NCBI GenBank assembly: GCA_035714785.1
Contig: DASTLQ010000008.1
Coordinates: forward strand, 1,713 to 65,712
Source of the DNA: Minisyncoccota bacterium
GTDB taxonomy: Bacteria > Patescibacteriota > Minisyncoccia > Phycocordibacterales > UBA9973
DNA length: 64,000 nucleotides
Direction of reading: 5' to 3'
A program made the position numbers and the translations under genes. Shown here one piece after another: positions 3,037 through 59,467 of this stretch (positions are counted from its first letter, which is position 1; each line of letters opens with the position of its first letter). The notes beneath the pieces are model-generated. The model was not told where the DNA came from, did no database searches, and saw only the letters and a program-made list of their open reading frames with translations.

Positions 3037-3107
3037 TCGGGGGTGGGGATTGAACCCACGACCTGAGGGTTATGATTCCTCCGCTCTGCCAACTGAGCTA
3101 CCCCGAC
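3037..3107 (-). tRNA. tRNA-Met/Ile2 (CAT anticodon)
   Basis: The reverse complement is GTCGGGGTAGCTCAGTTGGCAGAGCG..ATCATAA..GGTTCAATCC..CCCCGAC. Acceptor, D, anticodon (CAT) and T arms are all identifiable. Confidence 0.75.
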
Positions 3108-3784
3108 AAAATATTCTCTTTCATTGCCCTAATTAAACCTAGCATTTTATATTTTAAGTTCTTTCCTCTTCTTACCACTAACCTACATGTACCATAGTAA
3201 TTATCATAATTAGCGTATACCTTACTAACCTTAGTATTTACATAATAAGGCTTTCTTAATTGACTATTTTGTAAGTTTAGCAGTTTTTTCCAAAAACTCA
3301 AGACCACATTTATTCGTTCTTCATGAATCCTATTAATCTGAATTGAGCACACAATTTCTTCAGAAGGTATCTGTAAAACATCCACTAAAAATAATTTCAT
3401 AATCAAAATCATTTCTGGATCTGAATTCACAAATATAAAACCCGAAGTGCTATCACTTTTTGATCCTTCGCTCCAATATAAAGCTGTAGCAATTAATAAT
3501 AATTCTTTTTTTGAAATTTTTTCAACATGCTGTTTACCCCAGTCATTAGCATTATTAATGGCATCTCGTTTTTTCTTTCTATTTGATTCTGCTCCCATCC
3601 ATCTACCCATAACACTTCCTTTTTGTTTTTTTAATTTTTCTATTTGTTCAGAACTAAGTAATATATCCCTACACCAAAGACTTACAGCACTTTTAGAAAC
3701 CTCGAGGGCTTTTGCAATTACCACAATAGACATCCCATTTGCCCTCATCTTTCGTGCTTCTATTTTCTTGTCATATTTAGCCAT
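3098..3784 (-). CDS. HTH-domain protein with possible LAGLIDADG-like homing-endonuclease fold (free-standing); the 3' end overlaps the tRNA(CAT) gene by about 10 nt
   Basis: The N-terminus carries a resolvase/IS-type HTH (ANGMSIVVIAKALEVSKSAVSLWCRD). The segment LLLIATALYWSEGSKSDSTSGFIFVNSD resembles a LAGLIDADG helix followed by beta strands. The start is probably at MAKYDKK. The assignment is weak. Confidence 0.35.
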   Translation of the reverse strand: MAKYDKKIEARKMRANGMSIVVIAKALEVSKSAVSLWCRDILLSSEQIEKLKKQKGSVMGRWMGAESNRKKKRDAINNANDWGKQHVEKISKKELLLIATALYWSEGSKSDSTSGFIFVNSDPEMILIMKLFLVDVLQIPSEEIVCSIQINRIHEERINVVLSFWKKLLNLQNSQLRKPYYVNTKVSKVYANYDNYYGTCRLVVRRGKNLKYKMLGLIRAMKENILSG

Positions 3785-3859
3785 ACATAAATGGTATAAC
3801 ACAAAATAAAGATATATAAACCTTGCAAAATCAGCAAAAATAAGCTATTATTTCTTACA

Positions 3860-4215: not shown

Positions 4216-4277
4216 GTCTTCTTGTGCCTTTTTGCGCGCCAATTTTGTGCCTACACTTACGTGTCTTGCGCGCAAAT

Positions 4278-4928: not shown

Positions 4929-6386
4929 TTATTTTAAATCTTTTTCTAAGGGAAATAGTGAATAATCCTGGCCCGTAGGGGCGGTGAAAAGCATCCCGAA
5001 AGGTAGCCCTTCTTTAGAAAGACCAGACGGAATAGAGATAGACGGCAGGCCAGCGAGGTTTGCAGAAACTGTAAAAATATCGGAAAGGTACATTTCGACT
5101 GGATCTTTTTTCGCTCCAAATTTGAATGCGGGAGTAGGGGTGGTTGGTGTCATTACAAAATCTACTTCTTTAAAAATGCCATCGTATTCTTTCATGATAG
5201 CACGACGAACTTTCCATGCCTGATTATAGTAAGCGTCGTAATATCCGTGCGAGAGTACATATGTACCGAGCATCACTCTTCTGCGAGTTTCTTGGCCAAA
5301 GCCTAGGGCACGAGTTTTTTTATATGAGTCAGACACACTTTCCCCTTCTTCGCGAAGACCGTATCGAACTCCGTCCAACCGAGAAAGATTTGTAGAAACT
5401 TCTGCTGGCATGATTATATAGTACACGGCCAGAGAATACTTTGAATATGGGAGCGAAATATCTTTTATTTCATATCCTGCCTTTTTGAGCTTTTCTACGG
5501 AGTGCTCGAAATTTTGAAGCACTTCCGGATCTATTCCTTCTTTCAAGAAATCCCTTGGTATACCTATCCTTTTTAGGTGTAAGGGTAAGGGGTCCCCTTG
5601 CATGTTTGCGTGTAAGGGGTCCCCTTGCATGTTAAAGGGTCCGCCTTCGCTCTGCGAAGGTGGACCCTTAGATGTGCCATCCATTTCATCACGTCCCGCG
5701 ATGCATTCAAATACTATCCTTGCATCCTCAGAGGTTTTTGCCATCGGGCCGATTACGTCGAGCGATGAAGACATGGCAGTAAGACCGCTTCGGGAAACGG
5801 CTCCATAGGTAGGCTTCATTCCCACTACTCCGCAAAAACTAGCAGGCTGACGAATAGAACCACCCGTATCAGATCCAAGTGATGCGAGTGCCATTCCTCC
5901 TGCCACCGCAGCAGCCGAACCGCCCGAAGAACCGCCCGGTACTCTGGAGGGATCTAGCGGATTTCTCACTGGGCCATATGCAGAATTTTCGGTAGAAGAT
6001 CCCATGGCAAATTCGTCCATGTTTGTTCTACCGATTAGCACTGCTCCAGCTTCTTTCAATTTCTTTATCACGAAAGCATCATAGCTTGCTCGATAATTTT
6101 CAAGCATTTTTGAACCAGAGCTGTTTATTTTTCCATTCACTAAAATATTATCTTTCACTGCGATTGGAATTCCAGTGAGCGGTCCTCCTTCTCCCCTTTT
6201 TATTTTCTCATCCGCCTTTTTTGCTTCCTCTAGTGCACCTGCAAAAACTTCTAGAAAAATATTTAGCTCCTTGTTTTTTTCTTCTATGCGTGCGAGGCAT
6301 GCAGAAACTAAATCCACCGAGGTTATTTCTCCGGCTTGCATCATCTCTCCCGCTTTTTTAATTGTCAGTGAGTCTATGTCGATCAT
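4929..6386 (-). CDS. gatA: Glu-tRNA(Gln)/Asp-tRNA(Asn) amidotransferase subunit A, carrying an in-frame REP-derived insertion
   Basis: The amidase signature is present (GPLTGIPIAVKDNI, GGSSGGSAAAVA). A repeat at 5576-5670 is translated in frame as GPFNMQGDPLHANMQGDPLPLHL. Confidence 0.9.
   Translation of the reverse strand: MIDIDSLTIKKAGEMMQAGEITSVDLVSACLARIEEKNKELNIFLEVFAGALEEAKKADEKIKRGEGGPLTGIPIAVKDNILVNGKINSSGSKMLENYRASYDAFVIKKLKEAGAVLIGRTNMDEFAMGSSTENSAYGPVRNPLDPSRVPGGSSGGSAAAVAGGMALASLGSDTGGSIRQPASFCGVVGMKPTYGAVSRSGLTAMSSSLDVIGPMAKTSEDARIVFECIAGRDEMDGTSKGPPSQSEGGPFNMQGDPLHANMQGDPLPLHLKRIGIPRDFLKEGIDPEVLQNFEHSVEKLKKAGYEIKDISLPYSKYSLAVYYIIMPAEVSTNLSRLDGVRYGLREEGESVSDSYKKTRALGFGQETRRRVMLGTYVLSHGYYDAYYNQAWKVRRAIMKEYDGIFKEVDFVMTPTTPTPAFKFGAKKDPVEMYLSDIFTVSANLAGLPSISIPSGLSKEGLPFGMLFTAPTGQDYSLFPLEKDLK
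5576..5670. repeat. REP-like palindromic repeat cluster R1 (2 core units plus module-B palindrome) inside the gatA CDS
   Basis: GGTAAGGGGTCCCCTTGCATGTTTGCGTGTAAGGGGTCCCCTTGCATGTTAAAGGGTCCGCCTTCGCTCTGCGAAGGTGGACCCTT. Confidence 0.85.
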
Positions 6387-6664
6387 TAGAGTATCTTTTT
6401 AACTTTCACAAATCCATCTTGGGAATCTGGAAACTGATTTAAAATTTCTTCACGCGAAAACTGGCGGGGACGGGCCTCGTCTTCTCGCCACACATTCTTT
6501 TGCACTGGCTCAGTATCAGCATCAGTTTCATCGATTTTGGCCTCTCGGATTTGCTCAATATAGCCCAAAATCCCCTCTAGGTCTGCGGAAAGGGCGTCCT
6601 TTTCACTGTCTTCTAAATTAAGCTTGGCTAGCTCTGCCAGCTTCTCAATATCCTTTATTTCCAT
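6386..6664 (-). CDS. gatC: Glu-tRNA(Gln) amidotransferase subunit C
   Basis: The 92-aa ORF overlaps the gatA start by 1 nt (ATGA). The motif ..LAKLNLEDSE..ILGYIEQI.. is typical of GatC. Confidence 0.85.
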   Translation of the reverse strand: MEIKDIEKLAELAKLNLEDSEKDALSADLEGILGYIEQIREAKIDETDADTEPVQKNVWREDEARPRQFSREEILNQFPDSQDGFVKVKKIL

Positions 6665-6680
6665 GCTGAAATTATAGCAC

Positions 6681-6855
6681 GTGTAAGGGGTCCCCTTGCA
6701 TGTTATCCACAGGTAAGGGTGGTGGGTGTGGATAAAGTGTAAGGGGTCCCCTTACATGTTGGTGGGAAAGGGTCCACCTTCGCTAAGGGTCCGCCTTCGC
6801 CTCTGGCGAAGGTGGACCCTTAAAGGTGGACCCTTAAAGGGGTTCCTTTACACTT
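6681..6855. repeat. REP-like repeat cluster R2 (2 core units, 2 DnaA-box 9-mers, 2.5 copies of module B)
   Basis: GTGTAAGGGGTCCCCTTGCATGTTATCCACAGG...GTGTGGATAAAGTGTAAGGGGTCCCCTTACATG...AAGGGTCCGCCTTCGCCTCTGGCGAAGGTGGACCCTT. It lies between the htpX stop and the gatC start. Confidence 0.85.
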
Positions 6856-10096: not shown

Positions 10097-10143
10097 ATAA
10101 ATAATAAGGAATTAGGGGTAATACTTCTATTATAGCATGCTTA

Positions 10144-10224
10144 GGTGTAAGGGGTCCCCTTACACTTTATCCACACCCACCACCCTTACCTGTGGATAAC
10201 ATGTAAGGGGTCCCCTTGCATGTT
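10144..10224. repeat. REP-like repeat cluster R3 (2 inverted core units, 2 DnaA-box 9-mers)
   Basis: GGTGTAAGGGGTCCCCTTACACTTTATCCACACC...CCTGTGGATAACATGTAAGGGGTCCCCTTGCATG. It lies between the lemA start and the secF stop. Confidence 0.85.
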
Positions 10225-11128
10225 AGGCTTTACGTTTGTGCTCTTCCCACATCACGAGGACTGGGGAGGCGAAGAATATCGATGAATATACGCCGAAGAT
10301 CATACCTGTAGTAAGCATGAATGCAAAGTATTTTGTAGCAGGTGGTCCAAAGAAAAATAGGGACAGCAATACCAATATAGTAGTGAGCGAAGTGAGTATG
10401 GATCGAGCATAAGACTGATCCAAGCTCTTGCCTACAATTTCTTCAAATTTTGAATGATGTTTTATATTGTCTTCGTTTCGAAGATTTTCTCGAATACGAT
10501 CAAAGACCACAATAGTGTCAGCAATAGAAAGACCGACGATGGTAAGCGCAGCTACCACGAATAATGAATCCGCCTCTACTCCAGTAAATTTAGAAAGTAA
10601 TGAAAATACTCCAGCTGCAATGATCACGTCGTGCAAAAGTGCAGCGATAGCGATCAGTCCGTATTTCCATGAAGAAACTGGATTAGAAACTTTTCTGAAA
10701 GCAAATGCGATAAAGCATACCACCGCGAAAGAAGAAAGGATGATGGCGGTAATGGCTTTTCTTGAAAGCTCTCTTCCTGTTGATGGACCGATGGAATTAA
10801 AGCTAGTCTCTACAAGCTCATACTCATCGCCTGCAGACATGACCGAAAGCAATGCTTGGTGTTCATCATCTGTGAGATCGCGAGTCTTTACGATATATCC
10901 TGATTCCCCTGTAGGCTGAAGCACCACGGAACCAAGACCAAGTAGCGCAAGCTCACTGTTTAAATCAACTTGTAGAGGTCTCTCCCCTACATAGGTTACT
11001 TCGGTAAGTGCACCTCCTTTAAAGTCTATCCCCATTTTTATTCCAAATACGGAAATAGAGATGATAGACAAAATCACTAGTATGATAGAGATAGCGACAA
11101 ATATTTTTTTGTGTTTAATTACAAACAT
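10223..11128 (-). CDS. secF: Protein translocase subunit SecF
   Basis: The 301-aa ORF has six TM helices and the conserved FKGG.. N-terminal region. It lies downstream of secD. Confidence 0.85.
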   Translation of the reverse strand: MFVIKHKKIFVAISIILVILSIISISVFGIKMGIDFKGGALTEVTYVGERPLQVDLNSELALLGLGSVVLQPTGESGYIVKTRDLTDDEHQALLSVMSAGDEYELVETSFNSIGPSTGRELSRKAITAIILSSFAVVCFIAFAFRKVSNPVSSWKYGLIAIAALLHDVIIAAGVFSLLSKFTGVEADSLFVVAALTIVGLSIADTIVVFDRIRENLRNEDNIKHHSKFEEIVGKSLDQSYARSILTSLTTILVLLSLFFFGPPATKYFAFMLTTGMIFGVYSSIFFASPVLVMWEEHKRKA

Positions 11129-11130: not shown

Positions 11131-12495
11131 TTATTTTTTAAATATTCTTGCATCGAATAAAAATCTAGCAACCTTTCCTTCTCCAATGAATGTCACCCCG
11201 TATAGGAACAATCTTGAAATCACTACGGCAGCAAACATAGAGACCAGCACACCCATTCCAAGCGTCAGAGCAAATCCTTTGATGAGGGAACTTCCAAACC
11301 AGAAAAGGATCACTGATGTAATCAGGGTAGAAATATTTGAATCACGAATAGAAAGCCATGCTCGGGCAAAACCACCATTGATGGAATCAAGAATGCTCTT
11401 TTCTTCTGCAAGCTCTTCTTTCATGCGCTCAAATATAAGGATATTGGCGTCGACGGCTATACCGAGGGAAATAATAAATCCAGCGATGCCAGCTGCCGTC
11501 AAGGTGACTGGAATCAATTTATATAAAGCTAAAATAACTGCCACATATACCGCCAAAGAAATGACGGCTAGTAATCCTGGCAGGCGGTACCAAAGAATCA
11601 AAAAGATTGCGATTGCAAGAAATCCAATTATAGCTGCTTTCACTCCAGCCTCTACTGCATTTTCTCCAAGGATTGCTCCGATGGTCTGCCTAGAAACCAA
11701 AGTAATCGGCACAGGCAAAGCTCCGGAATTTAATCTTCCGACAAGCGTCTTCGCTTCTTCAGGAGTAAACTGTCCAGAAATTTGTGCTACTCCATCTAAG
11801 ATTGGTTCGTTTACTGTTGGTACTGAAATTGGTGCACCATCTAGATAGATTGCGACTGGCTTTCCGACATTTGCTTTTGTAATTTCTGCGAAGAGTTCTT
11901 TTCCTCTTTCATCAAATTCAATTCCAACCAAAGGCTGTCGTGTTGTAGGATCAAATTGTAAATTTGCTCTCTTTAAAAATCTTCCAGTAAGCTCCGTAGA
12001 AACAAATTGAGAATTTGGGTCTATTGTTAGCTCTCCTTCTTCGGTGATAGTGTAGTTTAGTTCTGTTCCCTCTGGGGCTTCAATTTTAAATTCCAAAATA
12101 GGAGTCTCACCGATCATGGCCGCTGCTTGGTCTACGTCAGTCACTCCGGGTAAGTCTACAATAAGTTTTTCTCCACCTCCTTCTACAAATCCGCCTCGCT
12201 GTATTTGAACGAGTGGCTCAGATACTCCAAAAAGATTTACTCGGCGCTCAATCACGTCTCTTAAGGCGTCCATTGATTCGCCAATTTCTCCGGGAGCTAC
12301 TTCTGAAACGTCCGCTTCATAAACAAGATGACTTCCGCCCGAAAGGTCTAGTCCTAAGCGCAAAGGAAAATTGTGAAAGAAAGAAGTCTCATTTTCATAG
12401 TTCGTGTTTGCCCGTGGTTCTGATTTAAATACAAAAAATGCCACTGCGATTCCGAGCAGTAATATGATGAGCGCTCCTAGTCTTTTTTTCCACAT
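11131..12495 (-). CDS. secD: Protein translocase subunit SecD
   Basis: Large periplasmic domain followed by six C-terminal TM helices. The start is trimmed to MWKKRLGALII, because the ORF's N-terminal extension runs into the REP repeat. Confidence 0.85.
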   Translation of the reverse strand: MWKKRLGALIILLLGIAVAFFVFKSEPRANTNYENETSFFHNFPLRLGLDLSGGSHLVYEADVSEVAPGEIGESMDALRDVIERRVNLFGVSEPLVQIQRGGFVEGGGEKLIVDLPGVTDVDQAAAMIGETPILEFKIEAPEGTELNYTITEEGELTIDPNSQFVSTELTGRFLKRANLQFDPTTRQPLVGIEFDERGKELFAEITKANVGKPVAIYLDGAPISVPTVNEPILDGVAQISGQFTPEEAKTLVGRLNSGALPVPITLVSRQTIGAILGENAVEAGVKAAIIGFLAIAIFLILWYRLPGLLAVISLAVYVAVILALYKLIPVTLTAAGIAGFIISLGIAVDANILIFERMKEELAEEKSILDSINGGFARAWLSIRDSNISTLITSVILFWFGSSLIKGFALTLGMGVLVSMFAAVVISRLFLYGVTFIGEGKVARFLFDARIFKK

Positions 12496-12544
12496 ACAGG
12501 TTGATATTACGACATTTTTTAAACGTTCGCAAGTTTTGGGCCAA

Positions 12545-12682
12545 CATGCAAGGGGTCCCCTCCAAGGGTCCACCTTCGCCAGAGGCGAAGGTGGACCCTT
12601 TAACATGCAAGGGGACCCCTTACACTTTATCCACACCCACCCCCCTTACCTGTGGATAACATGCAAGGGGTCCCCTTACACC
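12545..12682. repeat. REP-like repeat cluster R4 (3 core units, module B, 2 DnaA-box 9-mers) in the divergent secD/SIMPL intergenic region
   Basis: CATGCAAGGGGTCCCCTCCAAGGGTCCACCTTCGCCAGAGGCGAAGGTGGACCCTTTAACATGCAAGGGGACCCCTTACACTTTATCCACACC..CCTGTGGATAACATGCAAGGGGTCCCCTTACACC. Confidence 0.85.
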
Positions 12683-12702
12683 TAAAGTGCTATAATATAA
12701 GG

Positions 12703-21231: not shown

Positions 21232-21296
21232 GAAAAAGGCCTAAAACCCCCAGAAACGCCAAAAGCCCAGCATAAACCGGGCTTTTGTAAGGATTT

Positions 21297-21340
21297 GCAA
21301 GGGGTCTAGGTGTAAGGGGTCCCCTTGCATGTTATCCACA
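21297..21340. repeat. REP-like repeat R5 (1 core unit plus DnaA-box 9-mer)
   Basis: GGTGTAAGGGGTCCCCTTGCATGTTATCCACA. Confidence 0.85.
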
Positions 21341-21347
21341 TATTTGA

Positions 21348-22116: not shown

Positions 22117-22698
22117 TCAAGGTCTTTTGAGTGCTTGTGTGGATAACTCTTTGGCGGACCACACGACCTCGTGAGGGAAATCGAGGATATCTCTGACCAA
22201 TTTGTCGTACATATCCAATCTATATACAAATTCTTTAGTATCAAAAACAACGTAAGAAAGCTCAACTCCGATTTCTGCTTCAAGTCTTTTCACACCTTCT
22301 TCCACTTTCTTGGTCTTGATTTTATCTCCTACCACTAAAATATCAGCCCGAGTGTCTTTGTCTTTTATAAATACACCAGACACAATCAAGAGCTTTATCT
22401 TTCCTGATTTTCGGAAACTTTCGATTATGTTTTGCTTGTCGTAGCTTCCGGCATTTATTAATAAATCCTCAAATTCAGTTGTATAAGGGAAAGCTAGATT
22501 GAAGGTCCAACCTGCAGACATCTTTTTTACAAAATTTGCCGACGAAAGAAGAGCGAGCTCTTTGCGGACCACCGAAAGATTCACCCTACTTCTACTTACT
22601 ATATCTTTATTGGTAAAAGCTTTGCTTTTGTTTTGCAAAAAAAGCCTCATCATTTTTACCCTAGACGGGCTTCCTAGTATTTTTCCTAATATTTCCAT
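22117..22698 (-). CDS. Hypothetical winged-HTH-like protein
   Basis: The N-terminal segment ILGSPSRVKMMRLFLQNKSKAFTNKDIVSRSRVNLSVVRKELALL has HTH character. The start is trimmed to MEILGKILG, because the 5' extension reads through repeat R6. Confidence 0.45.
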   Translation of the reverse strand: MEILGKILGSPSRVKMMRLFLQNKSKAFTNKDIVSRSRVNLSVVRKELALLSSANFVKKMSAGWTFNLAFPYTTEFEDLLINAGSYDKQNIIESFRKSGKIKLLIVSGVFIKDKDTRADILVVGDKIKTKKVEEGVKRLEAEIGVELSYVVFDTKEFVYRLDMYDKLVRDILDFPHEVVWSAKELSTQALKRP

Positions 22699-22717
22699 AT
22701 GCTCTATATTATACCTC

Positions 22718-22752
22718 GCATGTAAGGGGTCCCCTTGCATGTTATCCACAGG
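22718..22752. repeat. REP-like repeat R6 (1 core unit plus DnaA-box 9-mer)
   Basis: CGCATGTAAGGGGTCCCCTTGCATGTTATCCACAGG. Confidence 0.85.
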
Positions 22753-22767
22753 TTGCAAAAATTAAAG

Positions 22768-24480
22768 TTAATGCTGGTAAAATCCTCTAGCTTCTGAATC
22801 CGGTATAAGAATAAGTTTTACTTCCCTATTTTTACATAATTCGATTATTTTTTCATCATTTACTGACCCGCTCGTAGAAAAAATCGTCTTTATTCCTCGG
22901 TCTATTAATACTTCTGGAGCATCAGGAAATGGGAAGAAACTGTCGCTGTATGCCGTGGCTCCTGTGAGGTCGGCTGTTTGTGTGCCCTCCTGTGCGCTTT
23001 GGGCGCTTTGGGCGCTCTCTGCGCTTTGGGCCTCTCCCATACTTGCTCGAAATCCGGCTGACTCATCGGCGCGAGAGATTGCAAGCTTTGCCGCTCCCAC
23101 TCTGTCCTGCTGGCCGACTCCGTTTCCTAGTAGCTGTCCATCTTTTACTAGTGTAATGGTGTTGCTGTTTGAAGTACTACCTACTGCCCAAGCGAGCACT
23201 GCATCTTGGGGCAAGGCGTTTAGGGGTAAGGGGTCCCCTTGCATGTTTGCGTGTAAGGGGTCCCCTTGCATGTTATCCACAGGTACGAAGGTGTAGTTTG
23301 GTTGCTCTAAAAATCCACCTCGGACATATCGGAATCTTTTGGCTATATCGAGTGAGTCCTGCCCCGCCTTTTCAATCTTTGGATTTACTACCAAACGGCA
23401 CTTCCCCTTTTTGCGAGAAAGTATTTCGATTGCTTCTTCGCTAAAAGAAGGCGCGGCCACCATGTCGAGCAATCTCCTCCCCTCCGCTACATATTTATGA
23501 ATCAGGTCTTCTGCAATCTTTTCATCAACTGGAAAATTTACCATCACCATCCCGCCAAAGATTGCGCGTAAATCGCCAGTGAGCATTTTTTCCACTGCCA
23601 CTCCGCCATCAGCATCTGACACTCCTGCCCCACATGGATTTCCATGCTTTACTCCAATAGCCACAAACGGAACTTGCGAAAAGTTTTTTTCAAACCCCGC
23701 TCCGATATGGGTGACTGTCTGGATCATCCGATCAAGATCACATATATTGTTGTAGCTCATGGCACTGCCTCCGACCTGCTTCCAATTGTGCACCGCTAGT
23801 GCATCCTTGCTTCCTAGATTTTCAAAGAGAGCCGCCGGCTTCTGATATGCATTTTCCCCGTAAGCACATTCGTAGTTTCTTTTTCCAAAAATTGCTTTGT
23901 ATTCACCTCCACTATGATACTCTCCAGAAATGGAACAGTACCTTCCCACTACCGCTTCTGCCTTGGCAGAAAGTGCGTTTAGAAAATTTTCTTTCTCTGG
24001 TTCACCAGCTTGTAGCCATTCGATTACTCTTGGTCGATCGATAGGGTCGCAAATAGTGATCCTTCCTCCTTTGGCCGAAGCCCTGATCATGGTCGGTCCG
24101 CCAATGTCTGTTTTCTCTATCACTGATTCACGAGTGGCGTCCGGATTTGCAACCTCATCTTCTAAGGGATAGAAATCTACACACACCATATCGATGCGAG
24201 AGATTCCATATTTTTCCAAGTCCGCAATATGTTCCGGAGTATCGAGCGCTAAAAGTCCCCCGTGAATTTTTGGATGCAAGGTCGCTACTCGGTGTCCCAA
24301 TATTGCCGGCATGCCCGTGATCTCCTCAACGTCCGTCACCGCTATTCCATTTTCCGAAAGATATTTTGCCGTCCCTCCCGAAGAGATTATTTTCCAGCCC
24401 ATAGATACTAGGGCCTTGGCAAAATCTTCTAGACCATTTTTATTATAAACAGAAATGAGGGCCGTTTTTTGGTGTTGCAT
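22768..24480 (-). CDS. purH: Bifunctional AICAR transformylase/IMP cyclohydrolase, carrying an in-frame REP-derived insertion and a SAQ nonapeptide-repeat insertion
   Basis: The N-terminal MGS-like domain is MQHQKTALISVYNKNGLEDFAKAL. The C-terminus matches PurH (..SDSFFPFPDA..). Repeat R7 is translated as VDNMQGDPLHANMQGDPLPLNALP. The 9-bp tandem GCGCTTTGG x4 encodes SAESAQSAQSAQ. Confidence 0.9.
   Translation of the reverse strand: MQHQKTALISVYNKNGLEDFAKALVSMGWKIISSGGTAKYLSENGIAVTDVEEITGMPAILGHRVATLHPKIHGGLLALDTPEHIADLEKYGISRIDMVCVDFYPLEDEVANPDATRESVIEKTDIGGPTMIRASAKGGRITICDPIDRPRVIEWLQAGEPEKENFLNALSAKAEAVVGRYCSISGEYHSGGEYKAIFGKRNYECAYGENAYQKPAALFENLGSKDALAVHNWKQVGGSAMSYNNICDLDRMIQTVTHIGAGFEKNFSQVPFVAIGVKHGNPCGAGVSDADGGVAVEKMLTGDLRAIFGGMVMVNFPVDEKIAEDLIHKYVAEGRRLLDMVAAPSFSEEAIEILSRKKGKCRLVVNPKIEKAGQDSLDIAKRFRYVRGGFLEQPNYTFVPVDNMQGDPLHANMQGDPLPLNALPQDAVLAWAVGSTSNSNTITLVKDGQLLGNGVGQQDRVGAAKLAISRADESAGFRASMGEAQSAESAQSAQSAQEGTQTADLTGATAYSDSFFPFPDAPEVLIDRGIKTIFSTSGSVNDEKIIELCKNREVKLILIPDSEARGFYQH
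22990..23035. repeat. 9-bp tandem repeat (about 4.5 copies, GCGCTTTGG / GCGCTCTCT) inside purH
   Basis: The sequence is read directly. It is in frame and encodes an (SAQ)n-like stretch. Confidence 0.75.
23224..23283. repeat. REP-like repeat cluster R7 (2 core units plus DnaA-box 9-mer) inside the purH CDS
   Basis: GGTAAGGGGTCCCCTTGCATGTTTGCGTGTAAGGGGTCCCCTTGCATGTTATCCACAGG. This is the same two-unit variant, in the same strand and frame, as in gatA. Confidence 0.85.
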
Positions 24481-29293: not shown

Positions 29294-29393
29294 TATTAGA
29301 GAAAATTACTTATAAAATAGAAAAAGACCAGACCTCGGCGGATCTAGTCACTCATCTTTCGATTATATTCTTTGTGTCCCCAACCTGTCAAAA

Positions 29394-29480
29394 CTGTGGA
29401 TAACATGTAAGGGGTCCCCTTACACGCAACATGCAAGGGGACCCCTTACCCCTTGCCGACCCTTACCCTTACCCTTGGCC
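29394..29480. repeat. REP-like repeat cluster R8 (2 core units, DnaA-box 9-mer, CCCTTACC tail) at the 3' flank of the RAYT gene
   Basis: CTGTGGATAACATGTAAGGGGTCCCCTTACACGCAACATGCAAGGGGACCCCTTACCCCTTGCC. Confidence 0.85.
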
Positions 29481-30161
29481 CTCGCCCAAACCCTCATGTG
29501 TATTAAACAAAAGCCATTCTTTTATAAAATCATTAAAGTCATCGACTTTTTCAAAATATTCCGGAAAAGCTCCTTTGTTAATAATTTCTTCTTCTTGATA
29601 ATTTTTCTGCTGGTAAATTAAATAGCTAGAATTTTGATAACTATTTAAATATCTCTCTGTCCTACGAATATCACTAATTCCGCTCTCTTTCCACTCTGGG
29701 TCAATTATTTTTACCGGATTTAAATGAATATAAGCAAATAAATATTTTAAGTATGTATCCGTGTTAACATGCTTCGCTTTAAATGCCCTCTCAAATACTG
29801 GCCCAGTCCTTTTGTGTTTTTTATTAAAATACATCGAATAGCCAGTAAGGAGCTTTAGCATAAATTGAGTTACTCCTCCTGGAATCTTTTCTTTTACTAA
29901 AATATGAAAGTGATTAGGCATGAGACAATATGCCCCTATGTCGACAAGTGTTCTTTTTCTGCGCACGAAAAATAGGTCAGAGAAAGTACGGCCGTTTTTG
30001 AAATGCCGAGCTATGTCTACAGAGTCTGAACTATTACACACATAGAGCAGAGCCTTAAATCTCAAATAATCCTTGGAATCGAGAAAAATCTCGTGCTTAT
30101 CCGTACCACGGTTGTATAAATGATAATATTCGTTGATAGAAAAATTGATCTTCCGCTCCAT
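29469..30161 (-). CDS. REP-associated tyrosine transposase (RAYT; IS200/IS605-like Y1 HUH transposase family)
   Basis: An HUH motif (CLMPNHFHILV) and a C-terminal catalytic-Tyr motif (YLFAYIHLNPVK) are present, and the N-terminus (YHLYNRGTDKHEIF) matches the Y1 family pattern. REP clusters lie immediately on both flanks. Confidence 0.7.
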   Translation of the reverse strand: MERKINFSINEYYHLYNRGTDKHEIFLDSKDYLRFKALLYVCNSSDSVDIARHFKNGRTFSDLFFVRRKRTLVDIGAYCLMPNHFHILVKEKIPGGVTQFMLKLLTGYSMYFNKKHKRTGPVFERAFKAKHVNTDTYLKYLFAYIHLNPVKIIDPEWKESGISDIRRTERYLNSYQNSSYLIYQQKNYQEEEIINKGAFPEYFEKVDDFNDFIKEWLLFNTHEGLGEGQG

Positions 30162-30224: not shown

Positions 30225-30313
30225 GGTCCCCTCCACCTGTGGATAACATGCAAGGGGTCCCCTTACACTTTATCCACACCCTGTGGATAACATGCAAGGG
30301 GTCCCCTTACACC
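30225..30313. repeat. REP-like repeat cluster R9 (2 core units, 3 DnaA-box 9-mers) at the 5' flank of the RAYT gene
   Basis: GGTCCCCTCCACCTGTGGATAACATGCAAGGGGTCCCCTTACACTTTATCCACACCCTGTGGATAACATGCAAGGGGTCCCCTTACACC. Confidence 0.85.
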
Positions 30314-30317
30314 TTGA

Positions 30318-32415: not shown

Positions 32416-32985
32416 ATGAAAAAAGAAATCATCTCTATCACCGGTACTTTAGGAAGCGGGAAATCTAGCACCGCCGACCGCGTGGCCCAAAATTTAGGAT
32501 ATCAAAGATTTTCTTCTGGGGATTTTATGAGAAAAATCGCTCTCGAAAGGAGGCTTTCCATAAACGAACTATCTGCCCAAGCTGAAAATGACCCGACTAT
32601 AGATGTGAGTATTGACGACGAGGTACGAAAGGTTGGCGAGATGGATAAAATCGTGATTGATTCCCGCCTAGCGTTTCATTTTATTCCCAACTCTTTCAAA
32701 GTATATTTGGACCTCCCCCCTGAAATCGCCAAGGAAAGAATTTTGAACAACATCAAAGAAAATGCTCTCCGCCGACAAAGCGAAAGCTCCGAAAATCCCG
32801 ACGAGATTTTTCATAAAATAAATGAACGTCTTGAGAGTGAAAAGAAAAGGTACAAAGATATATATGGCATCACAAATCACACAGACAAGAGCAATTTTGA
32901 TATAGTAATAGACACAAACAAAAACAACCTCGATGAGGTTGTTAAAATCGTGCTTTCTGAATACCAAAAGTGGCTCAACTCCTAG
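32416..32985 (+). CDS. cmk: Cytidylate kinase (archaeal/short type)
   Basis: A P-loop (ISITGTLGSGKSS) is present, and the size and LID region match short-type CMP kinases. Confidence 0.65.
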   Translation: MKKEIISITGTLGSGKSSTADRVAQNLGYQRFSSGDFMRKIALERRLSINELSAQAENDPTIDVSIDDEVRKVGEMDKIVIDSRLAFHFIPNSFKVYLDLPPEIAKERILNNIKENALRRQSESSENPDEIFHKINERLESEKKRYKDIYGITNHTDKSNFDIVIDTNKNNLDEVVKIVLSEYQKWLNS

Positions 32986-33053
32986 GGTAAGGGGACCCCT
33001 TGCATGTTATCCACAGGTAAGGGTGGTGGGTGTGGAAAGGGTCCCCTTGCATG
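32986..33053. repeat. REP-like repeat cluster R10 (2 core units plus DnaA-box 9-mer) between convergent cmk and secY
   Basis: GGGTAAGGGGACCCCTTGCATGTTATCCACAGGTAAGGGTGGTGGGTGTGGAAAGGGTCCCCTTGCATG. Confidence 0.85.
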
Positions 33054-33058
33054 TGCAC

Positions 33059-34327
33059 CTAGTACTCGCGCATGGAGACTTGCGCGTCCACTTTTTTGAT
33101 GAGGTCTAGGACCACAGAAACTACGATGAGGAGGGCTGTACCGCCGAGGGCAATAGCTGTAATACCAGTCACAGCCTGAGTGACTAAAGGAAGGACTGCG
33201 ATCAATCCCAAGAATACTGCACCGAGCAAGGTGATTCTACCCAACACTTTGGAAATATATTCAGCAGTAGAAGCACCTGGACGAATACCTGGAATGAATG
33301 CACCATTTTTCTGTAGATTTGTAGAAAGGGATTCTGGATCAAAAGTAACAGCGGTATAGAAGTAGGTAAACATAAATACAAGAATGAAGTACAACACTCC
33401 GTACAATAGCGAAGTCTGAGAAAAGGAAGCGAGTGATGTAGCCACTTTTTGCAAAGTAGGATTTGTTGCCCCAGCCAAAAAGTTTCCGATCATTTGAGGG
33501 AACAGAAGAATAGAAAGGGCAAAGATGATTGGGATCACTCCAGCCTGGTTTACGCGAAGAGGAATGTAGGTAGAGCCTCCGCCGTACATTTTCATTCCAC
33601 GCACTCGTTTTGCGTAAGTGACCGGAATCGGTCGCTCAGCTTCCGTCACCACTACCACACCGGCGATTACCAGAATTCCCACCACCACAAAGGCTACCAA
33701 GAGTGGGATCTGCGAAGGTTCAAATGTAAATGCTAGCTGGCTGACTTCAGATGGAAGCACAGATACGATACCAGCAAAGATGAGCAAGGATACTCCGTTT
33801 CCGATTCCGAATTCTGAAATGAGCTCTCCGAGCCACATGGTCAAAAGTGCTCCAGCTACCACGATGATCACATTCATCACGCGATCAAAAGGAGTGAGGC
33901 CAGTCAAAATATTTTGCTGTTCCAAAATAGCGAGCAAGCTGTACCCCTGAATAGCAGCCAATGGCACAGTGAGATATCGAGAGTACTGAGTAAATCGCTT
34001 TCGTCCTGCCTCCCCTTCTTCATGATAAAGCTTCTTCAAAGAAGGCACCATGATAGTGAGGAGTTGCATGATGATGGAGCTCGTAATATATGGTCCTACT
34101 CCAAGCATGATTATAGAAAGGTTTGAAAGTCCACCTCCGGAAAAGATATTCAAAATCCCAAAGAATTGATTGTTGGACAAAAACTGATTTAGCGCCAGAG
34201 TATCGATGCTCGGAATTGGAATAGTAGAAAGCAATCGGAAGACAATCAAGGCGAAAAGCACAAACAGCACCTTCTTTCGGAGAGATGCATCTGTAAAGAT
34301 CAGTTTAATTTTGTGCCAGAAATTCAT
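33059..34327 (-). CDS. secY: Protein translocase subunit SecY
   Basis: The 422-aa ORF has ten TM helices and is the last gene of the spc cluster. Confidence 0.9.
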   Translation of the reverse strand: MNFWHKIKLIFTDASLRKKVLFVLFALIVFRLLSTIPIPSIDTLALNQFLSNNQFFGILNIFSGGGLSNLSIIMLGVGPYITSSIIMQLLTIMVPSLKKLYHEEGEAGRKRFTQYSRYLTVPLAAIQGYSLLAILEQQNILTGLTPFDRVMNVIIVVAGALLTMWLGELISEFGIGNGVSLLIFAGIVSVLPSEVSQLAFTFEPSQIPLLVAFVVVGILVIAGVVVVTEAERPIPVTYAKRVRGMKMYGGGSTYIPLRVNQAGVIPIIFALSILLFPQMIGNFLAGATNPTLQKVATSLASFSQTSLLYGVLYFILVFMFTYFYTAVTFDPESLSTNLQKNGAFIPGIRPGASTAEYISKVLGRITLLGAVFLGLIAVLPLVTQAVTGITAIALGGTALLIVVSVVLDLIKKVDAQVSMREY

Positions 34328-44595: not shown

Positions 44596-44800
44596 ATGAT
44601 TTTTTTGGCTAATAGCTCTAACTTAACGTACGAGAACCAGTCGCTAAGGCGGAGTTACTAACGCTTAATTAAACTAATAATTTATAATTAAAATCTACTT
44701 ATTTTGTCATTTATTGCCTCTTTTTTTAAAATTAGCAACAAAAAAACCGCGAAAGTGCAGTTGCATCTATATTAACAGATTGCAAATTATTGTCAACATG

Positions 44801-44861
44801 GGTGTAAGGGGTCCCCTTGCATGTTATCCACAGGTTTAGGTGTAAGGGGTCCCCTTACACC
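44801..44861. repeat. REP-like repeat cluster R11 (2 core units plus DnaA-box 9-mer) upstream of tuf
   Basis: GGTGTAAGGGGTCCCCTTGCATGTTATCCACAGGTTTAGGTGTAAGGGGTCCCCTTACACC. Confidence 0.85.
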
Positions 44862-44888
44862 TAAGTTTGCGTGCATTTTAAATCTAAC

Positions 44889-45234: not shown

Positions 45235-45753
45235 TTATAATCCGCTGTTTTTAGACTGACGAGCTCGTTCAACTAATTCGTCTCTCATTTTCTCAGCATC
45301 TACTGCTGAAAGTCCTTTTAGTCTACCTTCCGACCCCATTCCTCTCATCCCGCGTCCGCCCATCATCCCCCCTCCTGCTGTCTGAATTTGTAAATCCGAA
45401 AGCCCTAGGAGGCGATCGATTATTCCCCTGTAAATATCCACGTTTTGAATTCGGTCATACGGAATGGTCACGTATTTTTTATAAATGACTCCCGATTCTT
45501 TCTTAAAACCATTTTCTGCTAGTTCATATCGATAATACTTATATGTAAGTCTTGCCCAAACATAGGAGACACCCACGACAAATAAGATATAAATGATTAA
45601 CGCTACTGTTAATGGTCCCCATGATACCTGTTGAGGTTCTTCAGTAATCCAAAAAGAAGATAAAATAGCGCCCAGAATCCAAATAATAAAAATAAATCTA
45701 GGAATAAATGCTAAGACGAACAGCCATAATGCTTTTGGGTCAAGATGTTTCAT
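45235..45753 (-). CDS. Bacterial PH-domain (bPH_2/YdbS-like) membrane protein
   Basis: Two N-terminal TM helices and a C-terminal domain (..YDRIQNVDIYRGIIDRLLGLSDLQIQTAGG..). The start is trimmed to MKHLDPK, because the 5' extension reads through repeat R12. Confidence 0.5.
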   Translation of the reverse strand: MKHLDPKALWLFVLAFIPRFIFIIWILGAILSSFWITEEPQQVSWGPLTVALIIYILFVVGVSYVWARLTYKYYRYELAENGFKKESGVIYKKYVTIPYDRIQNVDIYRGIIDRLLGLSDLQIQTAGGGMMGGRGMRGMGSEGRLKGLSAVDAEKMRDELVERARQSKNSGL

Positions 45754-45770
45754 AATTTGATTATACTCCA

Positions 45771-45820
45771 CCTGTGGATAACATGTAAGGGGTCCCCTTG
45801 CATGTTCCCCTTGCATGTTA
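45771..45820. repeat. REP-like repeat R12 (1.5 core units plus DnaA-box 9-mer) abutting the fusA stop
   Basis: CCTGTGGATAACATGTAAGGGGTCCCCTTGCATGTTCCCCTTGCATGTTA. Confidence 0.8.
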
Positions 45821-47968
45821 CTTGCGGGTGGCGATGATAGTTTCGGCTACGTTTTGAGGCACGATGTCGTAGCGAATGAATTCCATAGTGAAAGATGCAC
45901 GACCTTCAGTCATGGATCGTAGGCTGGTCATGTATCCGAACATTTCAGAAAGAGGAACTACGGCATTTACTACTTTGTTCATTCCGCGGTCTTCCATTCC
46001 TTCGATCAATCCTCGTTTTGAAGACAGATTACCTGTCACGTCTCCCATGAATTTATCTGGAGTGACAACTTCTACTTTCATCATAGGTTCCAAGATCACT
46101 GGAGTAGCTCGTCGGCAAGCATCTTGTACAGCCATAGAAGCGGCGATTTTGAAAGCCATTTCGTTTGAGTCCACTTCGTGATAAGAACCGTCCCATAGGT
46201 CTACTGATACGTTTACCATTTTGAATCCTGCCAAGATACCTCGGTCTAGTCCTTCTTTAAATCCTTTTTCACAAGCAGGGATATATTCCTGAGGGATCAC
46301 TCCTCCTTTGATGTTGTTGATGAATTCAAATCCTTCACTTCTCTTTGTATTCTTTGGAAGATCTGACACTTCTTCTTTTGTAAGAGCTTGCATTGGCTTG
46401 ATCTTGATCTTCACATGACCGTAGTTACCGCGACCTCCAGACTGCTTGATGTATTTTCCTTCAGCCTCAGAATTGTTGGTGATAGTTTCTCGATACGCAA
46501 CCTGTGGTTTTCCGACATTTGCTTCAACAGAAAATTCTCGCTTCATGCGGTCAACGATGATTTCTAGGTGAAGCTCTCCCATTCCTGAGATGATAGTCTC
46601 CCCTGCTTCGTTGTCGCTTGAAACTTTAAAGGTAGGATCTTCTTGGGCAAGACGGTTTAGGGCCATTCCCATTTTTTCTTGGTCTGCCTTAGTTTTTGGT
46701 TCGATTCGAAGAGAGATCACTGGTTCAGGGAACACGATCTTATCAAGCTCGATAGGACTATTTTCATCACATAGAGTGTCGGAAGTAATGGTGTCTTTCA
46801 ATCCCACCGCAGCTGCAATTTCTCCAGCAAATACTTTCTTTACTTCTTCTCGGTCGTTTGCATGCATACGTAAGATTCGGCCGATACGTTCTTTGTTTCG
46901 AGTACGAGGATTGTAAACATAAGATCCTGCACTCAGTGTTCCTGAATATACTCGGAAGAAAATAAGCTGTCCGACGAATGGATCAGTAGCCACCTTGAAA
47001 GCAAGAGCGGAAAAAGGTTCGCTATCATCTGCATGTCGAGCAATTTTAACTTCATCGTTTCCAGGATCAGTTCCTTCAATAGCGGGAATATCTAGAGGAG
47101 ATGGAAGATAATCTACCACTCCGTCAAGCACTAACTGAACTCCTTTATTTTTTAGAGCAGTACCTGCATATACTGGGAAAACTTCATTGTTGATTACTCC
47201 TTTTCTCAAAAGCTTCTTTAAAGTTTCTGCATCAGGAATCTTTCCTTCCAAGTATTCACCCATCACTGTATCGTCTTGCTCAACGATTTTTTCGACAAGC
47301 TCATGGTGATACTTTTGGGCTTCTGCTTTTAGTTCTTCTGGAATTTCTTTTTCAACAACCTGACTTCCCATTTCTCCTTCAAAGTAGAATGCCTTCATTT
47401 TCAAAAGGTCCACTACACCTTCGTGCTTTTCTTCCAAGCCGATAGGAATCTGCATGCGAACTGCTTTCTTTGTCAGACGATCCAAAATAGTTGCAAATGA
47501 GCGTTCAAAAGAAGCACCGGTGCGATCAAGTTTATTGATGAAACAAATACGAGGCACTTTTGCTTCGTCGGCATAGCGCCAGTTGGTTTCAGACTGAGGC
47601 TCTACTCCTGCCACTCCGTCGAAAACTACTACAGCTCCGTCGAGTACGCGAAGTGATCGCTTTACTTCTACTGTAAAGTCGATGTGTCCAGGGGTGTCGA
47701 TGATATTAAAACGATGTTTTTTGTTTTTGTCAGCAAGAGCATAGGTTGGAGTCCAGAAACAAGTAACAGCAGCAGAGGTAATAGTAATACCTCTCTCTCT
47801 TTCCTGTTCCATCCAGTCGGTCACAGTCTCCCCTTCATGCACTTCTCCGATCTTATGAGAAACTCCGGTATAAAAAAGCACCCGCTCAGTAGTGGTGGTT
47901 TTTCCTGCGTCGATATGCGCAATAATTCCTATATTCCTTACTTTTTCTAAAGGATAATCTCTTTCCAT
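45818..47968 (-). CDS. fusA: Elongation factor G
   Basis: 716-aa ORF with a GTPase domain ([12 protein letters not shown]) and the EF-G domains II-V. Confidence 0.95.
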
Positions 47969-49599: not shown

Positions 49600-49848
49600 A
49601 TGGCGAAAACATGTGCAATCACAAAGAGGGGTTCGATTGTAGGAGGCGGATATTCCAACCGTACTCGTGCAACCAAATTCAACCCTACCGGTAAAGCCCG
49701 AAAATATCTGAATCTTCAGAAAAAGAAGATATTCGTACCCGAACTTGGAAAATCGGTGATTGTTACCATTTCTACAAAAGGCCTACGAACTATAAAGAAA
49801 AACGGTGCCTACGCTACTCTGAAGAAAGCTGGACTAATTAAAGCCTAA
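49600..49848 (+). CDS. rpmB: 50S ribosomal protein L28
   Basis: MAKTCAITKRGSIVGGGYSNRTRATKFNPTG..SVIVTISTKGLRTIKKNG aligns with the L28 family. Confidence 0.75.
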   Translation: MAKTCAITKRGSIVGGGYSNRTRATKFNPTGKARKYLNLQKKKIFVPELGKSVIVTISTKGLRTIKKNGAYATLKKAGLIKA

Positions 49849-49852
49849 CCCG

Positions 49853-49909
49853 CAACATGTAAGGGGTCCCCTTGCATGTTATCCACAGGGTAAGGGGACC
49901 CCTTACACC
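49853..49909. repeat. REP-like repeat cluster R13 (2 core units plus DnaA-box 9-mer)
   Basis: CAACATGTAAGGGGTCCCCTTGCATGTTATCCACAGGGTAAGGGGACCCCTTACACC. Confidence 0.85.
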
Positions 49910-49916
49910 TTGCATA

Positions 49917-51267: not shown

Positions 51268-51342
51268 CCTGTGGATAAAGTGTAAGGGGTCCCCTTGCAT
51301 GTTATCCACATGTGGATAAAGTGTAAGGGGTCCCCTTACACC
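51268..51342. repeat. REP-like repeat cluster R14 (2 core units, 3 DnaA-box 9-mers)
   Basis: CCTGTGGATAAAGTGTAAGGGGTCCCCTTGCATGTTATCCACATGTGGATAAAGTGTAAGGGGTCCCCTTACACC. Confidence 0.85.
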
Positions 51343-51343
51343 T

Positions 51344-58006: not shown

Positions 58007-58051
58007 GTATTAAATATACTCCCAAATAAAATAAAAACCAACCAGCAAAAC

Positions 58052-58105
58052 AGGGTAAGGGGACCCCTTACCCTGTGGATAACATGCAAGGGGACCCCTT
58101 ACACC
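58052..58105. repeat. REP-like repeat cluster R15 (2 core units plus DnaA-box 9-mer) abutting the rplK stop
   Basis: CAGGGTAAGGGGACCCCTTACCCTGTGGATAACATGCAAGGGGACCCCTTACACC. Confidence 0.85.
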
Positions 58106-58530
58106 TAGTCTTTTACGTCGATTCCCATAGAGCGGGCAGAGCCTGCTACGATGCGGATAGCGCCTTCGATATCTTTTGCGTTTAGATCTGGCATTTTCTT
58201 TTCTGCGATTGCCTGTGCCTGTGCTTTAGTGATTTTTCCAGCCTTGCTGACAGTGTTTTTACCTGATCCCTTTTCGATTCCAGCAGCTTTCAAAATAAGT
58301 CCTGATACTGGAGGAGTCTTAACGACAAAATCGTAGCTTCGGTCTTCGTATACGGAAACATTTACAGATACTGTGTCGCCCATCATCTTAGAAGTGGCAG
58401 CGTTAAACTTGGTGACAAAGTCTCCGATATTGATTCCTGCCTGTCCAAGTGCTGGTCCAAGAGGAGGAGCTGGAGTAGCCTTTCCTGCTGGAATCTGAAG
58501 CTTTATTTTTTTTGTTACTTTTTTAGCCAT
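58105..58530 (-). CDS. rplK: 50S ribosomal protein L11
   Basis: [34 protein letters not shown]. Confidence 0.9.
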
Positions 58531-59319: not shown

Positions 59320-59387
59320 TATTCTTTTAAAAAAGCCCCTCGTGGGGCTCTTTTAATATACTCCTTTCACAAAAAATGTCAATTTTA

Positions 59388-59467
59388 GGTGTAAGGGGTC
59401 CCCTTACACTTTATCCACACCCTGTGGATAACATGCAAGGGGACCCCTTGCCCCTTGCGCCTTGCGC
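59388..59467. repeat. REP-like repeat cluster R16 (2 core units, 2 DnaA-box 9-mers, CCCCTTGCGCCTTGCGC tail)
   Basis: GGTGTAAGGGGTCCCCTTACACTTTATCCACACCCTGTGGATAACATGCAAGGGGACCCCTTGCCCCTTGCGCC. Confidence 0.85.

Follow-up and report, generated by a model that had tools for sequence, protein, structure and literature searches.

The 64-kb stretch of contig DASTLQ010000008.1 analysed here (the window), from a metagenome-assembled genome (MAG), carries in gatA, the gene for subunit A of the Asp/Glu-tRNA amidotransferase, a sequence that looks like a repetitive extragenic palindrome (REP). The locus raises the question of whether this segment belongs to a genuine repeat family and lies in a working gene and, if so, how it came to be there and why it persists. 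An earlier reading of the sequence (the original prediction) had proposed that the repeat is in frame and stop-free. The gatA open reading frame (ORF) was found to be uninterrupted over 485 aa, with the amidase residues kept. Its product matches the Pfam Amidase domain over residues 25-477 and the structure of Aquifex GatA (3h0l_A, E 4.7e-134), and is identical to a complete NCBI protein annotated as GatA (P0001), the host of which is Ca. Paceibacterota. Residues K78, S153/S154 and S177, which from established family knowledge we take to form the Ser-cisSer-Lys triad, are at columns that do not vary in an alignment of 89 GatA sequences (query included). With its catalytic columns invariant and its domain full-length, the gene does not look like the pseudogene that the original prediction had allowed for.

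The repeat was found where it had been placed (5576-5670, about 95 bp), but the proposed limits did not hold; comparison with the other copies sets the ends at about 5572-5670, which gives a length of 99 nt, or 33 codons. GatA residues 240-272 derive from nt 5571-5669, in the protein context ...DGTS-KGPPSQSEGGPFNMQGDPLHANMQGDPLPLHLK-RIGIP.... Within the copy, the 22-mer GTAAGGGGTCCCCTTGCATGTT is present twice with no mismatch (at 5585 and 5612), together with a hairpin that has a 16-bp stem (AAGGGTCCGCCTTCGC tct GCGAAGGTGGACCCTT). The insert has a G+C content of 54.5%, as compared with 44% in the rest of the gene, and its + strand is predicted to form two long hairpins (-33.7 kcal/mol and z -10.8 as single-stranded DNA, ssDNA; z -10.9 as RNA). 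Neither an Rfam family nor a terminator-like site was found at the inserts of the window, and signs of an intron, an intein or bypass were missing from both gatA and purH, a second gene described below: there was no Rfam match, the frames are open and the lengths are multiples of three. The segment is also far too short for an intein, and this reading was rejected.

Allowing up to three mismatches, the window has 29 matches to the 22-mer, where 100 shuffles gave 0, and the hairpin unit AAGGGTCCRCCTTCGC was matched seven times, against 0.03 expected. Given these counts, the repeat is real and far beyond chance, and its assignment to a REP family, which had been proposed from the sequence, is borne out. 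We conclude that a dispersed, palindromic REP-like family has one of its copies inside the intact gatA gene, in frame and free of stop codons.

Units, clusters and folding of the repeat family

Three units make up the family. Unit A is an imperfect palindrome of 22 nt (GTGTAAGGGG/TCCCCTTGCATG), unit B is the hairpin AAGGGTCCRCCTTCGC...GCGAAGGTGGACCCTT, and unit C (TTATCCACA/TGTGGATAA) mostly occurs as two copies in inverted orientation. Together they form 17 clusters across the 64 kb (Table 1), with layouts such as A-C-A, A-A-B and B-A-C-A that resemble bacterial interspersed mosaic elements (BIMEs). All but two of the clusters (15/17) lie outside verified coding sequence. Other apparent overlaps with genes were considered and rejected. 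The start of the SecD ORF (11131..12636) is over-extended, since the SecD ortholog aligns from residue 48, which puts the true start downstream of the repeat; likewise, ORFs 22117..22758 and 45235..45816 probably have over-extended starts, with internal Met codons just past the repeat. With the ATG of unit A (AACATGCAAGGGG) and frames that frequently lack stop codons, the repeats extend ORFs in the upstream direction and can give rise to false starts. Spurious N-terminal overlaps of this sort have been warned of for REPs (PMC3733652).

The two-unit arrangement with a TTTGCG linker had been singled out as the one that is stop-free in the gatA frame. It is not unique to gatA, being also present in purH (23226-23274), but the spacing that goes with it is restricted: same-strand A units are 27 nt (nine codons) apart only in the gatA and purH copies, and 26, 38, 41, 44, 47 or 56 nt apart elsewhere. 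The closest intergenic relative, which lies beside a transposase gene, has a 26-nt A-A spacing that would shift the frame, and many intergenic composites contain stop codons in most or all frames.

The mismatches of unit A are G.T pairs on the + strand and A.C on the opposite strand and, because of this, the + strand folds more strongly than the - strand. Folding of the same 126 nt as RNA gave -77.4 kcal/mol for the + strand and -55.5 kcal/mol for the - strand, which is the mRNA sense; the hairpins of the family have z scores of -8 to -11. REPs typically show an asymmetry of this kind, with G.T pairs on one strand (PMC3733652). At the end of the stem-loop, the window family has neither GTAG nor CGTC as a tag; its copies start (T)TAGGTGTAAGGGG, with GTAA within the stem. 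The family is therefore filed as REP-like, outside both large REP superfamilies.

Unit C (TTATCCACA) is also a perfect DnaA-box 9-mer, with 24 copies in the window where about 0.7 are expected. All but one of these copies are inside repeat clusters, usually two in inverted orientation, which form a hairpin, at sites that include 6703, 10167, 12627, 21332, 22742, 23273, 30270, 33007, 44824, 49879, 51302 and 59411, plus their minus-strand partners. The boxes may serve to titrate DnaA, or unit C may merely be a palindrome module.

Inserts in GatA and PurH

A second in-frame copy of the repeat resides in purH, which codes for AICAR transformylase/IMP cyclohydrolase; the product of the gene is identical to NCBI protein P0121, annotated as complete. 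The purH copy is 66 nt long (22 codons), is 97% identical over 58 nt to the gatA copy (5577-5634), and agrees with it in reading frame and in orientation to the gene. The frame used in both genes (...NMQGDPLHANMQGDPL...) has no stop codon, and the peptide NMQGDPLHANMQGDPLPL is encoded in both inserts. Unit C is also open in the purH frame, where CCT GTG GAT AAC reads P-V-D-N. Judged from the open frames, the inserts would be translated in both genes, and diagnostic peptides would span GGPFNMQGDPLHANMQGDPLPLHLK and VPVDNMQGDPLHANMQGDPLPLNALPQDAV. That both A units of the gatA copy match the 22-mer exactly, together with the 97% identity to the purH copy, makes a recent insertion plausible, as had been suggested, or else a homogenisation of the copies.

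Linker lengths were compared among close orthologs, 120 for GatA (68-76% identical to the query) and 119 for PurH. The GatA linker between D-x-T-S and I-G-[VI]-P varied from 11 to 39 aa and was most often 14 aa; in the query it has 34 residues, 33 of which derive from the repeat. In other phyla the native linker has a mode of 20 aa. The alignments show that the repeat in gatA replaces the native linker rather than adding to it. As the native linker is gone, the net gain is about 20 aa relative to close Paceibacterota (14-16 aa relative to the GatA of Aquifex and Thermotoga) and not the 32 or so extra residues counted in the original prediction, which had rightly expected a loop at this position but not the replacement of native residues. 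The PurH linker, between QPNYTFVP and (I/V)LAWA, ranged from 7 to 42 aa, with the minimal 7 aa in 37 of the 119 orthologs and 27 aa in the query. Here the native flanks are kept, and 22 codons seem simply to have been inserted. The idea that all variation in linker length stems from repeats was rejected, as in some PurH proteins the linker (xIAxAKEGVPE...) seems to be native sequence that has diverged.

AlphaFold2 models, built with ortholog alignments, agreed with the reading of the gatA insert as a loop. In the GatA model (predicted TM score, pTM, 0.83), residues 241-270 had predicted local distance difference test (pLDDT) values of 40-52, between confident flanks of 87 and 90. In the PurH model (pTM 0.80), residues 404-421 were the sole internal stretch with a pLDDT below 50, exactly at the repeat. 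Both inserts are thus predicted to be unstructured, disordered surface loops of naturally variable length that are compatible with the fold. Elsewhere in PurH, a short ESAQSAQSAQ repeat at about residues 487-498 (window ~23000-23040) has a pLDDT of 54-64 and varies in length among orthologs.

Origin and persistence of the genic copies

The window contains a candidate mobiliser, a gene for a Y1 (HUH) tyrosine transposase that resembles the REP-associated tyrosine transposases (RAYTs). The protein passes the cut-off of Pfam PF01797 (Y1_Tnp; 31.3 bits, cut-off 23), its only and best NCBIfam match is the REP-associated tyrosine transposase model NF047646 (E 3e-11), and the motifs NHFHIL and YIHLNP are visible in its sequence. 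It is 46% identical to the product of a Y1_Tnp gene in a related locus, L001. Repeat clusters abut the gene on both sides, the downstream one being nearly identical to the purH copy, and this is the layout of a REPtron. A REPtron example is TnpA-REP of E. coli. The likeness consists in a Y1 HUH gene located between the genome's own palindromes and in the HUH-like NHFHIL and YxHxNP motifs. The locus differs, however, in that the flanking repeats are direct and not inverted, and in that the protein has 230 aa as against the 146 positions of the model, scores under the family cut-off and has no solved structure detectable by sequence. The stop codon and the last residues of the transposase ORF come from the repeat (29469-29490). 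Inspection of the sequence at the gatA and purH copies revealed no target-site duplication or flanking direct repeats. Transposition of the IS200/IS605 type by Y1 enzymes makes no target-site duplication.

We consider it likely that the repeats are selfish passengers, tolerated in genes and filtered by purifying selection. By analogy with RAYTs and IS200/IS605 elements, the Y1 transposase would mobilise the repeats as ssDNA hairpins; within the same explanation, they could also spread by recombination between repeat copies. Insertions into genes would normally be lethal and purged, and the gatA and purH copies would be survivors that combine lengths of 99 and 66 nt (multiples of three), the 27-nt A spacing, a stop-free frame, a position in variable loops and the weaker hairpin on the mRNA strand. 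They would persist because all of these conditions for harmlessness are satisfied. The repeats would be translated into a disordered surface loop, presumably with neutral effect, and no benefit to the host need be assumed. The replacement of the native gatA linker suggests a later deletion, or an older insert overwritten by gene conversion.

Several observations weigh against this explanation. The missing native linker of gatA is not explained by a simple insertion, and the repeats carry neither tag of the two large REP superfamilies. The transposase fails the curated RAYT model (43.3 bits, as against a cut-off of 80 for NF047646), and no PDB structure matches it by sequence, only chance crystallin matches being returned (E >0.2). 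The exact 22-mer had 0 matches in GTDB representative genomes and JGI metagenomes; the nearest GatA is only about 76% identical and the nearest PurH 71%, and with no sufficiently close relative, no transposition event, empty site or strain polymorphism was observable. The data comprise 64 kb of one MAG, and translation of the insert is predicted. Finally, hairpin inserts recur at exactly these loops elsewhere and retain complementary arms, so that the hairpin itself may be selected.

This last point comes from a comparison of six syntenic Paceibacterota GatA loci with long linkers (L001-L006, +-10 kb each; Pfam GatC was assigned to syntenic genes in L001 and L003-L006). In all six, the linker DNA is a long hairpin (ssDNA z -3.5 to -10.2) with a sequence unrelated to the window repeats, and the long PurH linkers of two further loci, L095 and L096, also fold as hairpins (z -2.9 and -4.8). 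The controls were GatA loci of other phyla; the Patescibacteria loci L007, L008, L010 and L013, which lacked the motif anchor, were left out. In about 60 GatA genes from outside the Candidate Phyla Radiation (CPR), with a conserved 20-aa linker (xxxPVPDYxxxLxxxxxGLK), |z| was below 2.5. More distant CPR GatA proteins have linkers of 15-18 aa, with one hairpin exception, L014. The unrelated hairpins at the GatA and PurH loops (Table 1) include a perfect palindrome with a 21-bp stem that encodes CRVLDTRIGCPTPD, and CTCCCCCTTatcAAGGGGGAG, which encodes TPPYQGG. The GatA inserts of L001-L006 were not repeated within their +-10 kb loci (exact 12-mers, or 20-mers with up to three mismatches), and the repeat status of inserts of this type comes solely from a metagenome scan with one core.

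That core, TCAGGTCCTCGGaTCTCCGGGGCCCCAACCCCGGCCAGACCATTC, belongs to the GatA hairpins of L001 and L004, where it is identical at 55 of 56 nt, whereas the gatA genes are 73-76% identical and their third-codon positions 48%; the core was therefore not inherited neutrally with gatA. An 8-nt block differs between L001 and L004 in both arms, with complementarity kept. The scan with 22 nt of the core returned eight contigs that represent five sites, only one of them in gatA; the other four lie in a TrmD-like, an IscS/NifS-like, a GTPase-like and a 611-aa ORF. At all five sites the 48-56-nt core, nearly identical across genomes, is in frame within a long ORF, two different frames being used, and the flanking arms (15-25 nt), complementary to each other, differ from site to site. 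Three of the contigs (L087, L092 and L094) come from different samples, and identical P0024 sequences are found on 11 contigs. Different complementary arms around a constant core suggest either an inverted target duplication on insertion (template-switch palindrome growth) or active maintenance of the stem. Homology of the window B hairpin to the 48-nt core was considered and rejected, the resemblance (S-x-G-P ... P-F) being too weak. Tentatively, and as a possibility we would not yet favour, a few permissive loops of housekeeping proteins in Paceibacterota may be recurrent landing sites for protein-coding palindromic elements, at least one of which has no match in the described classes; this would be a distinct mode of selfish DNA, with the gatA and purH copies as one instance. 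The comparisons suggest, as examples of such loops, those after D-x-T-S in GatA and after QPNYTFVP in PurH, and loops in the TrmD-like and IscS-like proteins.

Selection of the hairpin itself at gatA and purH, for mRNA stability or processing, for an inter-domain translational pause or as a DNA site (DnaA, gyrase, recombination), the repeats then being recruited or kept for the host and not just tolerated, would account for the finding that all eight long linkers examined in other Paceibacterota (six in GatA, two in PurH) fold as hairpins and the non-CPR linkers do not. It is also consistent with the arms that covary over 8 nt between L001 and L004, with the contrast between their core and their third-codon positions, and with the excess of the DnaA-box 9-mer. 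We nevertheless regard it as unlikely. Inserts at the same loop are unrelated in sequence between genomes, many close orthologs have no insert, as seen in the PurH proteins with 7 aa and in the GatA mode of 14 aa, and the mRNA-sense hairpins of the window are the weaker version. Moreover, the same elements are found in unrelated genes and between genes, as for mobile DNA, the inserts coincide with no terminator-like site or Rfam family, and a recent insertion, or concerted evolution with other copies, would explain the conserved core just as well.

That gene conversion or illegitimate recombination between repeat copies overwrote an older palindromic insert in the gatA linker, with no direct part for the Y1 transposase, seems to us improbable, even though the native linker is wholly replaced and not interrupted. 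The gatA composite is a mosaic, the A-TTA-B and A-TTTGC-A junctions of which occur in other copies; the near identity of the gatA and purH copies, and the other hairpins that relatives bear at the exact gatA site, point in the same direction. The purH copy, however, retains its native flanks and resembles a simple insertion, and the closest ortholog, at 76% identity, is too distant to give the ancestral state. This is, in any event, a variant of the passenger explanation and not an alternative to the identity of the element. Very improbable, in our view, is an artefact or a dead gene, that is, a repeat mis-joined during metagenome assembly or a gatA pseudogene that is open by chance. Repeats are a classic source of misassembly in MAGs, and the window lies on one MAG contig of 83,675 nt. 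Yet gatA aligns to its orthologs at 100% coverage and about 75% identity, both halves being collinear and in the same frame, and an independent second gene, purH, shows the same in-frame repeat, which makes a misassembly unlikely. The catalytic and invariant columns of GatA are intact, the gatC-gatA coupling and the synteny are conserved, and independent assemblies elsewhere show analogous in-frame hairpins (P0024 and the contigs L087, L092 and L094). Passenger repeats filtered by purifying selection thus remain the explanation we prefer.

Other features of the window and of the related loci were recorded. A group I intron match lies at 3881-4088 (+; 66.4 bits), near an ORF at 3098..3802 (-), tRNA-Met at 3034-3107 and tRNA-Asp at 2818-2893 (-); ARAGORN detected no host tRNA at the intron. 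There is a similar intron match downstream of the gatA neighbourhood in L003, and L004 and L006 have LAGLIDADG ORFs at the equivalent place. In L002, a reverse transcriptase (RVT_1) gene and bAvd, in an arrangement like that of a diversity-generating retroelement, lie between htpX and gatC (2706-4888), and an extra 136-aa ORF lies between gatC and gatA. The 23S rRNA gene of the window (17132-20939, -) measures 3.8 kb, whereas the model is 2.9 kb long, and at least one group I intron lies within it (17431-17640, -; Rfam, 54.9 bits). Directly downstream of the 5S rRNA gene (16955-17060) are two tandem 77-nt units that are 99% identical (16788-16941). A 113-nt AT-rich repeat is present at 54490-54602 and 55278-55390 (96% identity, ~790 nt apart), with a partial third copy at 56032-56069; these repeats appear to adjoin small ORFs that follow one another, possibly as regulatory regions that were duplicated.

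Table 1. Coordinates of the host genes, the repeat clusters and the transposase gene in the window, and of hairpin elements in related loci (strand:., none assigned; =, same copy on another contig).
Feature	Position	Strand	Remarks
gatA (Asp/Glu-tRNA amidotransferase subunit A)	4929..6386	-	intact 485-aa ORF, hosts repeat; Pfam Amidase E 3.6e-151
gatA repeat composite	5572..5670	+	head TTTAGGTGTAAGG, A 5585-5606, TTTGC, A 5612-5633, TTA, B hairpin 5635-5669
gatC	6386..6664	-	92-aa ORF; overlaps gatA start codon (TAATG); operon context
Intergenic cluster (A, C hairpin, A, B)	6680..6848	.	between gatC and htpX
Intergenic cluster	10140..10226	.	
Intergenic cluster (B hairpin, A, C hairpin, A)	12540..12690	.	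upstream of secD; A-TTA-B junction as in gatA copy
Intergenic cluster	21290..21342	.	
Cluster	22718..22752	.	just downstream of purH stop; sole overlap is with the 5' end of ORF 22117..22758, probably over-extended
purH (AICAR transformylase/IMP cyclohydrolase)	22768..24480	-	intact 570-aa ORF; Pfam MGS + AICARFT_IMPCHas (E 2.8e-47)
purH repeat composite	23218..23283	+	A, TTTGC linker, A, then TTATCCACA; encodes V401-A422 (VDNMQGDPLHANMQGDPLPLNA)
Cluster A-TTGCG-A (26-nt period) + TTATCCACA	29393..29470	.	immediately downstream of transposase gene
Y1 (HUH) tyrosine transposase gene, RAYT-like	29469..30161	-	candidate mobiliser; Pfam Y1_Tnp
Cluster A-C-C'-A	30225..30316	.	immediately upstream of transposase gene
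Intergenic cluster	32982..33060	.	
Intergenic cluster	44798..44866	.	
Cluster	45771..45822	.	probably over-extended 5' end of ORF 45235..45816
Intergenic cluster	49848..49912	.	
Intergenic cluster	51268..51346	.	
Intergenic cluster	58050..58108	.	
Intergenic cluster	59384..59470	.	
Core element copies	L001:10718-10819; L004:10718-10813 (= L090); L087:~5040-5130 (= L092, L094)		
Core element copies, further	L088:~4390-4480 (= L091); L089:~3180-3270; L093:~8200-8290		
Unrelated hairpins at GatA/PurH loops	L003:2384-2440; L002:5605-5703; L014:6668-6721; L005:9476-9592; L006:10718-10819		also the purH linkers of L095 and L096

Relation to known elements and significance

Di Nocera et al. (2013; PMC3733652) reported REPs inside known genes of several species, such as Opitutus terrae, Thauera and Rickettsia conorii, mostly as dimers or groups that encode 20-30 aa and that were proposed to be neutral in linkers or loops. 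The statement that genic REPs are unusual was thus too strong, as in-frame copies of REPs and of Rickettsia palindromic elements (RPEs) are documented in several bacteria (PMC3733652, PMC10969869). The window family shares with the GTAG and CGTC REPs short, high-copy and mainly extragenic palindromes with G.T stem pairs, a minority of copies within genes, genic inserts of similar size (22 and 33 aa in the window, 20-30 aa in those REPs), Y1 genes flanked by repeats (REPtrons) and spurious N-terminal overlaps. It differs in being untagged, with the head TAGGTGTAAGGGG, in having three modules, with a DnaA-box palindrome among them, in its host (Patescibacteria/CPR), and in that the gatA copy replaces a native linker.

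The classic in-frame case is that of the RPEs (Ogata et al. 2000, 2002, as reviewed in PMC10969869 and PMC3733652). By these accounts, RPEs are likewise in-frame palindromes in unrelated housekeeping genes of a small reduced genome, with a conserved peptide, with intergenic copies too, and with inserts judged compatible with the fold and function of the protein; in the same accounts, however, they are longer (about 100-150 bp), have no known transposase, and nearly half of 44 copies are genic, as against 2 of 17 clusters in the window. The parallel is an analogy only, and neither membership nor a sequence relationship is claimed, the host being Ca. Paceibacterota and not Rickettsia. To our knowledge, the insertion mechanism of the RPEs in Rickettsia is still unknown. 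[quoted passage not shown] Like these, the window repeats are small non-autonomous repeats with long stem-loops, sometimes fused in frame to host ORFs. Unlike MITEs, they have no terminal inverted repeats derived from an insertion sequence and no target-site duplication at the genic copies, and their units are much shorter and form BIME-like arrays.

Full-text literature searches returned no relevant report of REPs, of REP doublets forming hairpins (REPINs) or of palindromic repeats in Patescibacteria, Parcubacteria or CPR bacteria. Hence, in-frame translated palindromic repeats are already known elsewhere and seem to be undescribed in Patescibacteria. The peculiarities of the present case are local: a three-module make-up with a DnaA-box palindrome as one module, the lack of both the GTAG and the CGTC tag, the replacement of a linker, and two genes that share a frame. 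The recurrent colonisation of the same enzyme loops by hairpins across Paceibacterota is, as a lead, more novel than the gatA and purH case itself.

Genomes of Patescibacteria/CPR are about 1 Mb in size, gene-dense and repeat-poor. A REP-like family in such a genome, with its own Y1 transposase and with copies predicted to be translated within two core enzymes, means that selfish palindromes colonise even these genomes and lengthen their proteins. Inserts of this kind inflate the apparent divergence of proteins, can seed spurious start codons and are potential points of misassembly in MAGs. If the recurrent use of loops holds, it would chart, from natural examples, where GatA, PurH and other enzymes tolerate insertions, and would provide a tractable system, parallel to the RPEs of Rickettsia, for the insertion of palindromes into coding DNA.

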